A stretch of DNA of 64,000 bases, from assembly GCF_003018235.1 (NCBI RefSeq), contig NZ_CP027439.1, one strand, 5' to 3'. Source of the stretch: Escherichia coli (GTDB lineage Bacteria > Pseudomonadota > Gammaproteobacteria > Enterobacterales > Enterobacteriaceae). The position numbers and the translations under genes are program-made. The first letter of the stretch is position 1. Every line of letters starts with the position of its first letter. The notes under the pieces are model-generated. The model made no database searches. It had not been told where the DNA came from and saw only the letters and a program-made list of their open reading frames with translations. Of the stretch, positions 1 through 10,535 are shown piece after piece.

Positions 1-1269
1 CGCCTGTATGCCGCGTCACGTCTTGACCCGGAGACGTATAAGAAAGTCCATGATGCCGGTTTCCGCTGGGCACCAAAACAGGCGCTGTTTGTCGCGCCAG
101 CTTGGACACCGGGCCGGGAAGATGTGCTCCTCTCACTTGCCGGAGAGATTGAGGATGAAGACAGCACACTCGCTGAACGTCAGGAAGCACGGGCGGAGCG
201 GTTTACTGGATACAGCGGAAAGCGGGCCAGTGAATCCGCACAGGCACTTGATGAAGTGGAAAGACTGGCCGCGATGATCCCGCCCGGTCAGCCCATTCTT
301 GTGGGGCATCACAGCGAACGCCGCGCCCGTCGTGATGCGCAGCGTATTGAAAACGGCATGAAACGTGCTGTGATGCTCTTTGAACGTGCAGAATACTGGG
401 AAGAGCGGGCGCGCTCGGCACTGCTTCACGCGAAGTATAAAGAACGTCCGGACGTTCGCTGGCGTCGTATCAAAAAAATCGAAGCTGATTTGCGCAAGTC
501 TGAAAAGACCATCGCGCAGTCGCAGAAATATCTGACGATGTGGCGGGCTGAATCGCTGGATCTGAATATGGCAAAACTCATCAGCAGTCATGACCATATC
601 AGCGCCTGTTTCCCGCTGGATACGTATCCGCGCCCGGCAGAAAAAAGCCAGTATGAAGGAAGTCGCTCGTTATGGTCGGCCCTGGATGATGACATCATCA
701 CCACGGAGCAGGCCCGTGAAATTGCGATCCGCTGTCATGAACGGCAGATTCAGCGTCAGCAACGCTGGGTTAACCACTATCAGAACCGCCTGATCTATGA
801 GCGTGCCATGCTGGACGAAAGCGGCGGCGTGGTTACCCGGACACAGGATTTTGAGCCGGGCGGACAGGTTTTCAGCCGGGGTGAGTGGCTGACCATCATC
901 CGCGTGAACAAAAGCAACGGGGCGGTGAGTTCAGTCACAACGCCAAATTACAGTTTTCTCGGGTACAGCGGCACGATGAAAGTGACGCCCGATCGCATCA
1001 CGGACTACAAAGCACCATCGGCAGAAGAGGCTGCCGTCGCCAGCCAGGCCGCGAAGCGTCCGCCGGTAGTCAACTATCCGGGGGAAGGTTTCCGGGAAAT
1101 GACAAAGGCACAGTGGGCCGCCCTGCCCCGGGACTGTAAGGCCGTGCGCAGTGTGGCAGAAGCAGAAGACCACGGGGCATACCGCTACCGCCGCACAATG
1201 GACAATAATTTCCGTCTGGTGAATGTGTATATCACCGACATGAAAATTACGGAAATCCCACAGAAATAA
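1..1269 (+). CDS. Leading-region protein of unknown function, 5' end lies outside the window
   Basis: Reading frame is open from window position 1 with no upstream stop; the listed 381-aa ORF 124..1269 is its C-terminal part. Sits upstream of the methyltransferase and ssb, as in F-like leading regions. Confidence 0.55.
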   Translation, partial: RLYAASRLDPETYKKVHDAGFRWAPKQALFVAPAWTPGREDVLLSLAGEIEDEDSTLAERQEARAERFTGYSGKRASESAQALDEVERLAAMIPPGQPILVGHHSERRARRDAQRIENGMKRAVMLFERAEYWEERARSALLHAKYKERPDVRWRRIKKIEADLRKSEKTIAQSQKYLTMWRAESLDLNMAKLISSHDHISACFPLDTYPRPAEKSQYEGSRSLWSALDDDIITTEQAREIAIRCHERQIQRQQRWVNHYQNRLIYERAMLDESGGVVTRTQDFEPGGQVFSRGEWLTIIRVNKSNGAVSSVTTPNYSFLGYSGTMKVTPDRITDYKAPSAEEAAVASQAAKRPPVVNYPGEGFREMTKAQWAALPRDCKAVRSVAEAEDHGAYRYRRTMDNNFRLVNVYITDMKITEIPQK

Positions 1270-1315
1270 GGTATATCCCCCCGGGAAATCCCCGGGGGAT
1301 GACGGAGATAATGAC

Positions 1316-1879
1316 ATGCACAGTCAGTTAAAAGAACGTATCCGGCTGATGCGCGCAAGGCTGGATAACGCCGCGCCGGTTGCTGAAATCCGGGCTGAAT
1401 CTCAGCTTTTTGTGACTCCTGCCCCGGTCTGTGATCGCCTGGTGACGCTGGCGGAGATCAGCAACCGTGATCACATTCTGGAACCCTCTGCCGGCACCGG
1501 GGCCATACTGCGGGCGATTCGGGATACCGCGCCGGGGGCCATGTGTGATGCGGTGGAAATCAACAGCGGGCTGGTCCGGTATCTGCGGGAAAATTTTAAC
1601 GGTGTCAGGGTTCAGTGTGGCGACTTCATGGAATGGCAGCCGGTGCAGTATTACAGCCGGGTTATCATGAATCCGCCGTTCAGCCACGGGCAGGATATCC
1701 GGCATATCCTGCGGGCCTTTTCCCTGTTGCGTCCGGGTGGCGTGCTGGTTGCCGTCTGTCTGAACGGGCCGCGCCAGCAGGAGAAGCTGTTACCGTTTTC
1801 TGACGTCCGCGAGGAGCTGCCACGCGGCACGTTTGCTTATACCGATGTTCCGACGATGATTATTCGTCTGCGTGCCTGA
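1316..1879 (+). CDS. Orphan DNA methyltransferase (N6-adenine type)
   Basis: 187-aa ORF with AdoMet-binding motif EPSAGTGA and catalytic NPPF motif; no adjacent restriction endonuclease gene. Confidence 0.75.
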   Translation: MHSQLKERIRLMRARLDNAAPVAEIRAESQLFVTPAPVCDRLVTLAEISNRDHILEPSAGTGAILRAIRDTAPGAMCDAVEINSGLVRYLRENFNGVRVQCGDFMEWQPVQYYSRVIMNPPFSHGQDIRHILRAFSLLRPGGVLVAVCLNGPRQQEKLLPFSDVREELPRGTFAYTDVPTMIIRLRA

Positions 1880-2060
1880 TGACTCCGGGCAGGCGGGAGG
1901 ACAAATGCCCGTCTGCCCGCGCCGGGAAAAGACCGCGCGCCGGTGGCGCTGAAAGGGGCCGCGCTCACGCGCCGCCCCTTACATTACGCGGACATTCTGC
2001 TGTGGGCTTCTGTCTTTTCAGACCTGTCATTTGTCTGTTACTGATGATGTTGTTGTTCCT

Positions 2061-2108
2061 GCTACTGCTACTGCTACTGCTACTGCTACTGCTACTGCTA
2101 CTGCTACT
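2061..2108. repeat. Hexanucleotide microsatellite (GCTACT)x8
   Basis: Eight perfect tandem copies read directly from the sequence; preceded by TGATGA/TGTTGT triplet repeats. Confidence 0.9.
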
Positions 2109-2109
2109 G

Positions 2110-2700
2110 TTCTTCTTTTTTCTGCTGTTCTGATTACTGCCTGTTTTGTTGTTCTCCTGCTTATGCCTTTTCCGGGCGTCCCCCTGGCGGGGCGGGCTGT
2201 CGTGAACGGAGCCAGCGAAGCTGTCTCCGCCCTGGCGGGCTTCCATCCCTGACGCGAAACCCCGGGCTTGCAGCGACCGTTCCGGTCGCGCCGCCTCTGT
2301 CGCGCCGTGGCCTGCGCTCCCGGCATCCCGGCAAAAGGCCGCCGGGATGTAAGGGGCAACGCCGTTTCGCAAACCGCGCTTCACGTCGTTGCGGCGGGTC
2401 CCTGTCCGTTGTTGTGTCCGGTGCCATTCACCTGTTTAAGCCCCTGTCGCCGGGGGCTGATACAGCCACAACCGTCTCCGCCAGTCCAGGGGTGAAATGT
2501 ACATCCCGCAAAACTTTTTGCCCAAAAGCAGGCAAAAACTTTTGCGGTCTGCCCCCGGACAGTCGTTTCCGGCCGTGGCAGTGATGCCCCTTGCGGCGAA
2601 GGTTCTCAAAAAGGTGATGGTGAATACCGGAGGGAACAAAAGGCAGGTCCCCGCAAAACGTCAAAACCGCGGCTCCCGAAACTCAAAAGATGATGGGGGC
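2110..2700 (+). promoter_or_regulatory. Frpo/ssi-like structured repeat, copy A (candidate single-strand promoter) upstream of ssb
   Basis: About 600 bp of GC-rich, hairpin-dense non-coding DNA ending just before the ssb RBS; paralogous to 7480..8125. Contains hairpin 2506..2547 (ccgcaaaactttttgcc/ggcaaaaacttttgcgg). Confidence 0.5.
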
Positions 2701-2728
2701 TGAAAACATCAACAGAAGGAGGCACATC

Positions 2729-3558
<830 letters not shown>

Positions 3559-7479: not shown

Positions 7480-8125
7480 ATTCTCTTTTTCTTCCTGCTC
7501 TGATTCTGACTACTGCAGTGTTGTCCTGTCTGCTAGGCGCACCTTCGGCTCCCGGCTGCCTGGCGGCATCCGGTCGTCAGGCCCGACTCCGACAGGCAGC
7601 TGCTGGCGCACCTGCCAGTCTCCGCCGAACCCGCTGGCGCGGTTTCGGGCTGTCGCTACGGTCCGATGCGTGAAAACCACAGGCTTGCAGCGACCGTTCC
7701 GGTCGCGCCGCCTCTGTCGCGCCGTAGCCTGCGCTCCCGGCATCCCGGCAAAAGGCCGCCGGGATGTAAGGGGCAACGCCGTTTCGCAAACCGCGCTTCA
7801 CGTCGTTGCGGCGGGTCCCTGCCCGTTGTTGTGTCCGGTGCCATTCACCTGTTTAAGCCCCTGTCGCCGGGGGCTGATACAGCCACAACCTGCCGCACTG
7901 ACTGTCCAGGGTAAATGAACAGCCCACAAAATTTTTTACCCAAAACCCGGTAAAAAATTTTGCGTTCTGCCCAGGACAGGTGCGTCAGGCCGTGGCAGTG
8001 ATGCCCCTTGCGGCGAAGGTTCTCAAACAGGTGATGGTTAATACCGGAGGGAACAAAAGGCAGGTCCCCGCAAAACGTCAAAACCGCGGCTCCCGAAACT
8101 CAACAGATGATGGGGGCTGAAAACC
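7480..8125 (+). promoter_or_regulatory. Frpo/ssi-like structured repeat, copy B, upstream of the orf95-like gene
   Basis: Paralogue of 2110..2700 with long identical blocks (7683..7897, 7985..8125). Hairpin 7925..7964 (cacaaaattttttacc/ggtaaaaaattttgcg) carries compensatory changes relative to copy A. Confidence 0.5.
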
Positions 8126-10239: not shown

Positions 10240-10535
10240 GGTTCTCACCACCAAAAGCACCACACCCCACGCAAAAACAAGTTTTTGCTGATTTTTCTTT
10301 ATAAATAGAGAGTTATGAAAAATTAGTTTCTCTTACTCTCTTTATGATATTTAAAAAAGCGGTGGTACTGACTATTTTTATAAAAAACATTATTTTATAT
10401 TAGGGGCGCTGCTAGCGGCGCGGTGTGTTTTTTTATAGGATAACGCCAGGGGCGCTGCTAGCGGTGCGTCCCTGTTTGCATTATGAATTTTAGTGTTTCG
10501 AAATTAACTTTATTTTATGTTCAAAAAAGGTAATC
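10240..10535. other. oriT: nic region, inverted repeats and direct repeats consistent with TraM binding sites
   Basis: Minus strand reads GGTGGTGAGAACCACC...TTTGCGTGGGGTGTGGTGCTTTTGGTGG (F-type nic motif, nick near 10261/10262); direct repeats GGGGCGCTGCTAGCGG at ~10403 and ~10451; AT-rich tracts. Confidence 0.8.

Follow-up and report, generated by a model that had tools for sequence, protein, structure and literature searches.

The short methyltransferase gene ydcA of an Escherichia coli IncFII-type plasmid is one part of a split gene. Its product is the catalytic, C-terminal module of a family of DUF3560–methyltransferase fusion proteins, and the remainder of the fusion is encoded directly upstream by ydbA. 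[quoted passage not shown] Taking both genes together, we tentatively propose that YdbA and YdcA form a two-part DNA N6-adenine (m6A) methyltransferase of low sequence specificity, which would be made early and would shield the incoming DNA. As a complete chain of steps this is a real possibility, if somewhat short of probable. Anti-restriction by orphan leading-region methyltransferases is already a published hypothesis; the new point is the split-gene relationship. It may be unexpected to specialists and it changes how ydcA should be tested: as the likely functional unit comprises two genes, ydcA assayed alone may show nothing. The window referred to throughout is the whole 64,000-nucleotide stretch of DNA analysed (contig NZ_CP027439.1), an IncFII-type plasmid with Rfam matches to sok, the traJ 5' UTR, FinP and CopA.

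YdcA is an intact methyltransferase core

The gene and its motifs are located as follows.

1316–1879, plus strand: ydcA, a 187-residue methyltransferase core with gamma-type motif order and without a target-recognition domain
1403–1420, plus strand: motif-X-like QLFVTP (residues 30–35); Q30, L31, F32 and P35 invariant
1478–1501, plus strand: motif I, LEPSAGTG (residues 55–62), SAM binding; E56, P57, A59, G60, T61 and G62 invariant
1670–1681, plus strand: motif IV, the catalytic NPPF (residues 119–122); N119, P121 and F122 invariant, P120 at least 90% conserved

The ydcA reading frame has an ATG start codon, with a GGAG at 1304–1307, 8 nt before the ATG. The SAM-binding and NPPF motifs that the initial annotation had pointed out are indeed present. 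They belong to an intact class I SAM-dependent methyltransferase of 187 residues and are invariant in 26 orthologues (at least 51% identity, lengths of 187–197 residues) aligned from Escherichia, Salmonella, Citrobacter, Serratia, Pantoea and Erwinia, among others. E81 and D103–F104 are also invariant and lie at the sites expected for motifs II and III. The QLFVTP sequence aligns with the ETP of M.TaqI and, in the fusion proteins described below, with PQLFPTP. Matches to Pfam MTS (E = 2e-6, 27.8 bits), to the catalytic domain of M.TaqI (E = 1.8e-6) and to PHROG families (E about 1e-32) demonstrate that ydcA is not a chance open reading frame.

An AlphaFold model built on the orthologue alignment (pLDDT 87) adopts a Rossmann methyltransferase fold. 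Ahead of the core are a low-confidence N-terminal helix (residues 3–17) and a disordered segment (19–29). According to the model and Foldseek, the chain stops at residue 187, directly after the core fold and without an extra C-terminal domain. The gamma-class motif order X-I-II-III-IV is present, in alignment with M.TaqI 22–122, and M.TaqI, HsdM and type IIG enzymes share with YdcA an FxTP-like motif X, motif I, an acidic motif II, motif III and NPP(Y/F) in the same order. The identity with M.TaqI is only about 25% over the core, however, and M.TaqI carries a C-terminal DNA-recognition domain of ~180 residues, while HsdM uses HsdS. YdcA has neither a target-recognition domain in its chain nor an HsdS subunit: no HsdS-like gene was found among its neighbours in the window or in a 97%-identical plasmid (L001).

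Relatives of the core point to a DNA substrate

Judging from its relatives, YdcA probably methylates DNA at N6-adenine. M.TaqI is both its best single-sequence match in the PDB and the top Foldseek hit (E = 7.5e-11, TM 0.69), its motif X is of the gamma type, and the best PADLOC match is mad2 of the MADS system (E = 1.9e-20, residues 28–185 against 269–443 of 492); together these observations favour DNA N6-adenine. Deletion of mad2 abolishes DNA m6A at TCAGNNNNTCC. PADLOC and PHROGs contain few RNA enzymes, so the evidence from these two collections is biased towards DNA. The adenine specificity given in the initial annotation is sustained in part: the nearest relatives of known activity, M.TaqI and mad2, are DNA N6-adenine enzymes, but the combination of NPPF and a SAM motif is not diagnostic by itself, and the Pfam and NCBIfam matches to RNA and protein methyltransferases are equally weak.

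Alternatively, YdcA could be an RNA or protein methyltransferase (rRNA or tRNA adenine-N6, guanine-N2 or glutamine-N5) that reprograms translation or host function in the recipient after entry. The top NCBIfam matches are Erm, KsgA and PrmC. Among 34 family members scanned, Pfam MTS is found in 22 and RrnaAD in 14, with N6_Mtase in some relatives only, and a family profile run against the PDB places Dim1 best (E = 1.3e-8), about equal with M.TaqI (E = 5.7e-8). NPPF-type motifs occur also in m2G RNA and glutamine methyltransferases. However, all of the NCBIfam scores are far below the family cut-offs (34.9 bits versus 212 for Erm and 30.1 versus 171 for KsgA, residues 29–128 only), the Pfam RrnaAD score of YdcA is 22.3 bits with a cut-off of 24, and the chain lacks the C-terminal helical RNA-binding domain of Erm and KsgA. 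Moreover, the closest relative with a known activity, mad2, is a DNA m6A enzyme, and related domains are part of giant phage proteins that carry a DNA methylase annotation, with one fused to a beta-clamp domain. Given these points, an RNA or protein substrate appears improbable. Pfam and NCBIfam do not distinguish between a DNA and an RNA substrate.

ydbA and ydcA correspond to one polypeptide in most relatives

The gene upstream of ydcA enters the window from the left.

1–1269, plus strand: ydbA, its 3' 1266 nt and stop codon, encoding a DUF3560 protein and proposed non-catalytic partner; frame 1 is open from base 1

The first 31 codons of ydbA lie left of the window, and 422 of its 453 codons are inside it, without a stop. 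The encoded residues are identical at 417 of 422 positions to the 453-residue YdbA of NZ_CP031548, and the protein matches Pfam DUF3560 with E = 2.7e-37.

Relatives of YdcA were collected with HMMER by exhaustively searching 1.8 billion cluster representatives. Of the 10,053 related representatives returned, 5,008 reached E ≤ 1e-10. The 136 best include 92 with a length of at least 250 residues, and at 40–50% identity most are not small. YdbA matches N-terminal to the methyltransferase domain in 70 of these 92 longer relatives, often end to end, with the methyltransferase domain forming the C-terminal end of a protein of roughly 600–700 residues. In P0266, for example, YdbA 5–451 aligns with residues 4–460, and methyltransferase residues 25–185 align with 506–666. 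YdbA is thereby collinear with the N-terminal 400–460 residues of the fusion proteins. Ten relatives were sampled with Pfam: 8 contain DUF3560, and 7 of these also have a methyltransferase match. The order is the same in the plasmid, where the DUF3560 gene lies directly upstream of the methyltransferase.

The correspondence extends to the junction. In an alignment of 34 sequences, the C-terminus of YdbA (…ITDMKITEIPQK) is the exact start of a Pro/Ala-rich linker in the fusions, which continue past the linker with a conserved helix and then PQLFPTP, equivalent to YdcA residues 5–35. The lengths add up accordingly, with 453 + 187 = 640 residues being the usual fusion length. When a fusion protein was used as tblastn query, at least 5000 plasmids matched with both halves, side by side and collinear. 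A further split pair exists at 42% identity. The tblastn search also identified a fused gene, Ajs_4206 (52% identical), in the MOBF/MPF_F plasmid pAOVO01 of Acidovorax, where it lies in a leading-region-like block with ssb, DUF932, a C5-methylase and radC; traD and trwC follow downstream. The architecture of the longer relatives thus identifies the IncF ydbA–ydcA pair as a split version of the fusion. As YdcA lacks a target-recognition domain and is the separated part of such a fusion, the functional unit probably begins upstream of 1316 and includes ydbA. The description of ydcA as an orphan holds insofar as no nuclease accompanies it, but the gene is not self-contained, being the split-off catalytic module of a DUF3560–methyltransferase fusion.

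It is conceivable that YdcA acts as a stand-alone orphan DNA adenine methyltransferase, methylating non-specifically and protecting by itself, with YdbA having a separate job or acting as a modulator. Its catalytic motifs are complete, the linker of the fusions is long and of low complexity, and stand-alone copies of ~185 residues without a DUF3560 neighbour occur in phage-like arrays of small genes. Nevertheless, fusion to YdbA-like sequence prevails in the 70 of 92 longer relatives mentioned above, at least 5000 plasmids have ydbA next to ydcA, the F plasmid has neither gene, and YdcA has no domain to hold DNA. In addition, the N-terminal helix (L5, R8, I9, M12) is kept ahead of the core in split and fused forms alike, and its sequence conservation suggests a docking element. 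We therefore view independent action of YdcA as unlikely.

In the two-part enzyme that we propose instead, YdcA would be the bare catalytic core, binding SAM and offering the NPPF pocket to a flipped adenine without a recognition domain of its own. YdbA, with its basic helical stalk and globular ends, would provide substrate or partner binding in a targeting or scaffold role. The two parts form a single polypeptide in most relatives, joined by the Pro/Ala-rich linker, and are encoded by separate, presumably co-transcribed genes in enterobacterial IncF-like plasmids.

An AlphaFold model of YdbA (pLDDT 87, pTM 0.60) contains a small alpha/beta domain (residues 20–85), a long antiparallel helical stalk (88–304) and beta-rich C-terminal domains (320–442). 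The DUF3560 part (88–212) is strongly basic, with a pI of 10.2. No TRD-like fold was seen in the model, and a comparison of YdbA with the PADLOC models gave no match. For DUF3560, a domain without an assigned function, the link to a methyltransferase provides a first functional lead and a concrete, testable role. A near-invariant GQPILVGHHSERRA loop is located between the first two long DUF3560 helices (residues 127–140, about nt 286–327). This loop is the origin of some "HD hydrolase" annotations and could be a metal or phosphate site.

The two cistrons are maintained separately

The ydbA and ydcA reading frames are separated by a short gap that contains a hairpin.

1271–1303, plus strand: conserved GC-rich hairpin CCCCCCGGG-AAAT-CCCCGGGGG, between the ydbA stop codon (1267–1269) and the ydcA ribosome-binding site; RNAfold −21 kcal/mol

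The CCCCGG/CCGGGG core of the hairpin is invariant, and its flanks covary in Klebsiella and Serratia plasmids. It may set the YdbA:YdcA ratio. Here the gap measures 46 nt (+1). Serratia and a second E. coli plasmid have 45 nt, which keeps the frame, and Klebsiella has 47 nt (+2); in each lineage ydcA retains its own GGAG Shine–Dalgarno (SD) sequence and ATG. Programmed frameshifting or readthrough from ydbA into ydcA was considered, given that the +1 frame is open over the gap and that a hairpin follows the stop codon. It is ruled out by the 45, 46 and 47 nt gaps: with all three frame relationships represented, each with its own SD and ATG, the genes are separate cistrons and not a frameshift product.

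The same data bear on whether the pair is a decaying remnant, in which a stop codon broke the fusion gene and left the downstream half non-functional. The two open reading frames are collinear with a single ancestral gene, and database entries for YdcA include many truncated variants. Against decay, both open reading frames are intact and constant in length, the catalytic residues do not vary across orthologues that range from E. coli to Serratia, Pantoea and Erwinia (51–96% identity), and the SD and ATG are kept in all three frame relationships. The ydcA stretch is moreover present in at least 5000 PLSDB plasmids at 90–99% identity, mostly conjugative plasmids of Escherichia and Klebsiella. 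A non-functional remnant is highly improbable.

The pair enters the recipient early

The direction of transfer was assigned from the nic site.

10253–10272, minus strand: F-type oriT nic-site sequence GCGTGGGGTGTGGTGCTTTT; one exact match in the window, 0 expected by chance

We take GCGTGGGGTGTGGTGCTTTT to be the F nic site identified in biochemical work on F TraI. With F TraI, the transferred strand enters 5' to 3' from the nick. The location of GCGTGGGGTGTGGTGCTTTT on the minus strand implies that the minus strand is transferred, with entry proceeding from about 10258 towards position 1. The genes traM and traJ and FinP lie on the opposite side of the nic site from ydcA, which is on the leading side at a distance of 8.4–8.9 kb; the transferred strand is its template, as it is for ssb and psiB. 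The placement of ydcA in the first-transferred DNA, as the initial annotation had it, agrees with this single match of the F nic sequence.

Rightward of ydcA the order is (CTGCTA)x8.5, ssiD/Frpo, ssb, DUF905, a 652-residue ParB-like gene, psiB, psiA, hok/sok, a second Frpo, DUF932 and a lytic transglycosylase. The upstream neighbour is the DUF3560 gene ydbA, preceded in the 97%-identical plasmid L001 by a klcA-type antirestriction gene, DUF1380 and hypothetical proteins. No restriction endonuclease gene was found near ydcA among the window neighbours (DUF3560, ssb, DUF905, ParB-like, psiB, psiA and hok) or in L001, in agreement with the missing partner endonuclease that the annotation had remarked on.

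Two copies of a single-strand promoter element lie in the window.

2350–2699, minus strand: ssiD/Frpo element of F, matching the ssiD sequence of PMC11541004 supplement 4 with 96.3% identity over 351 nt
7767–8116, minus strand: second ssiD/Frpo copy, upstream of the genes after hok, 89% identical to D90178

The first element, which is also 96% identical to D90178, lies upstream of ssb. It starts the ssb transcription unit and so bounds the ydbA–ydcA unit. A third copy, at 80% identity, is found in L001 (12343–12675) upstream of orf76–ydbA–ydcA, about 240 nt ahead of a 76-codon open reading frame; the equivalent position for the window would be about 620–950 nt left of position 1. In position and strand ydcA resembles the gene of the methyltransferase M.EcoGIX; the candidate Frpo-type promoter ahead of ydbA was seen in the 97%-identical plasmid only. 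The 76-codon hypothetical open reading frame (L001 12918–13148), situated between the Frpo-like copy and ydbA, is conserved in E. coli and Klebsiella plasmids and is probably the first gene of the ydbA–ydcA transcription unit.

No sigma-70-like promoter was found in 1–2800 on either strand, and no convincing plus-strand terminator was found around ydcA. In pS88, the transcript ratios of ydbA and ydcA shift in parallel. Taken together, the strand, the lack of a sigma-70-like promoter in this interval, the upstream Frpo copy and the parallel change in pS88 make it likely that ydbA and ydcA are transcribed early and transiently from the entering single strand. Under the proposed mechanism, transcription of the pair in the new recipient would probably start at the Frpo-type promoter just left of the window.

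Further variation was observed between ydcA and the Frpo element. A perfect (CTGCTA)x8.5 hexamer tandem repeat occupies 2059–2109, and related plasmids align in two pieces over this intergenic region, suggesting an indel, perhaps through a varying number of repeat copies. One plasmid (L012 2675–3646; NZ_CP091666) and about ten other E. coli and Klebsiella plasmids carry an IS110-family transposase between ydcA and ssb, near Frpo, which may reflect a recurrent or an inherited insertion site. A separation of ydbA from ydcA by IS110 was ruled out, the insertion sitting between ydcA and ssb.

Earlier naming and a possible role in entry protection

The gene name ydcA is in use for IncF plasmids, and a putative adenine-specific DNA methylase annotation existed by 2012. 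RefSeq names the product a class I SAM-dependent methyltransferase, and other automatic names conflict (KsgA/Dim1 family, trans-aconitate methyltransferase, phospholipid N-methyltransferase). Among the leading-region families of Samuel & Burstein 2024 (PMC11541004; statements on this source refer to its supplementary material and the searched main text), family 26 has 1957 members at a median position of 11 from oriT, labelled adenine-specific DNA-methyltransferase K07317 or Erm K00561. From the KEGG labels, size and position, ydcA is almost certainly this family. Likewise, ydbA is almost certainly family 28 (DUF3560/YdbA, 1913 members, median position 12), and both families are on the same strand, as are ydcA and ydbA. 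Family 14, a putative methyltransferase in a figure of that study, was rejected as the counterpart of ydcA: it is the DUF1380/YcjA family, and family 26 fits. The supplementary table annotates family 28 as "Methyltransferase domain protein", with 240 Foldseek hits to "Methyltransferase domain". The table and the searched main text list families 26 and 28 separately, state no link between them and contain no experiment on either. [quoted passage not shown]

The searchable literature contains no characterisation of ydcA or DUF3560, and no report of methylation activity or an anti-restriction effect for the YdcA family; an ST131 methylome study lists an M.EcoGIX-like enzyme as the only plasmid enzyme. 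Entry protection has been demonstrated only for M.EcoGIX, a beta-class enzyme unrelated to YdcA (PMC7736820). M.EcoGIX and M.BceJIII are plasmid-encoded m6A methyltransferases specific for single strands (Fomenkov et al. 2020, PMC7736820). M.EcoGIX protects the entering plasmid from restriction with the degenerate specificity SAY, associates with DNA polymerase I and alters plasmid copy number (PMC7736820). Like ydcA it is an orphan encoded in a conjugative plasmid's leading region, and it lies behind a Frpo-type promoter; it serves as the functional model for ydcA. In contrast to YdcA it has DPPY, motif IV ahead of motif I, and Pfam PF01555, for which YdcA gave no match; YdcA has the gamma-type order, with motif I before NPPF, and a DUF3560 partner. 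The IncF counterpart of M.EcoGIX is a separate gene for a 227-residue "DNA methylase" about 5 kb left of the window, a PF01555-type protein that is family 8 in PMC11541004. BLASTP between YdcA and this F leading-region protein aligned the motif I tripeptide only (residue 167 of the latter). YdcA was accordingly rejected as an M.EcoGIX homologue, being of a different class.

Since the nearest relatives of known activity are DNA N6-adenine enzymes, protective methylation of the incoming plasmid is a reasonable reading by analogy. The YdbA–YdcA enzyme would methylate the plasmid with low sequence specificity, during or before complementary-strand synthesis, and restriction would be blunted. DNA methylation might instead mark the entering or new strand for another purpose, such as replication timing, escape from mismatch repair or shut-off of the single-strand promoters. 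The position of ydcA between two Frpo elements and near ssb, psiB and the ParB-like gene, all with DNA-processing functions, is in keeping with such a purpose, as are the occurrence of a fusion with a beta-clamp domain (P0355, below) and the effects of M.EcoGIX through DNA polymerase I and on plasmid copy number. There is, however, no specific evidence in its favour, and the surroundings include the klcA-type antirestriction gene, in a region enriched in anti-defence genes according to the parts of PMC11541004 cited above. We consider a purpose other than entry protection quite unlikely.

If the pair is a working anti-restriction enzyme, it would protect entering plasmids as a second layer, different in mechanism, alongside the M.EcoGIX-type enzyme, KlcA and PsiB. 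In E. coli and Klebsiella, IncF plasmids are the chief vehicles of resistance genes. The pair is present in thousands of them, and its activity would help to explain the weak restriction barrier to these plasmids.

The core as a portable module

The methyltransferase core occurs in a variety of settings. The defence enzyme mad2, which is required for DNA m6A, resembles the fused form in having its catalytic core C-terminal to an accessory region. Unlike YdcA, it is part of an eight-gene chromosomal MADS defence system with a specific bipartite site, and no other mad genes are present beside ydcA. Giant phage proteins (PHROG 15406, 9133 and 11358; Shewanella phage X14 gp1) also contain this methyltransferase domain (E about 1e-31 to 1e-32). 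In contrast to YdcA, it is embedded there in proteins of 1259–3431 profile positions; no DUF3560 was detected in these matches. Considering the stand-alone copies, the phage giants and a beta-clamp fusion together, the core behaves as a portable module. From sequence comparison it would be combined with varied delivery or targeting parts, which fits a low intrinsic sequence specificity and also means that the core may be active without YdbA.

A broader reading is that DUF3560 and the core, which lacks a recognition domain, make up an entry-protection methyltransferase widespread among mobile elements, in which the coiled-coil YdbA directs the enzyme to single-stranded DNA or the replication machinery and not to a sequence. 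This is speculative, and we give it only modest chances. Such an enzyme would exist as two proteins in IncF plasmids, as one fusion protein in other conjugative plasmids and as a beta-clamp fusion in some elements, with its core also in giant phage proteins encoded near tail genes. If YdbA did target single-stranded DNA or the replication machinery, m6A would be placed on the entering DNA in step with replication and almost irrespective of sequence; no such recognition principle has been described for DNA methyltransferases.

Several individual architectures were recorded. The contigs of the metagenomic fusion proteins were too short for informative genomic context. The 1018-residue P0355 joins the methyltransferase core to a DNA polymerase III beta-clamp C-terminal domain and DUF3560, and Erythrobacter phage ZS04_73 (L006 4800–5588) encodes a core-bearing protein of 262 residues annotated as a DNA polymerase processivity factor; both hint at a link of the core to replication. 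The gene for Shewanella phage X14 gp1 (L007 1–7840) has 8223 nt, encodes about 2740 residues and is located directly upstream of the tailspike gene. Vibrio phage 1.211.A gp14 (L008) was noted beside it as a further carrier of the methyltransferase domain. Proteins of the X14 gp1 type may be virion-delivered.
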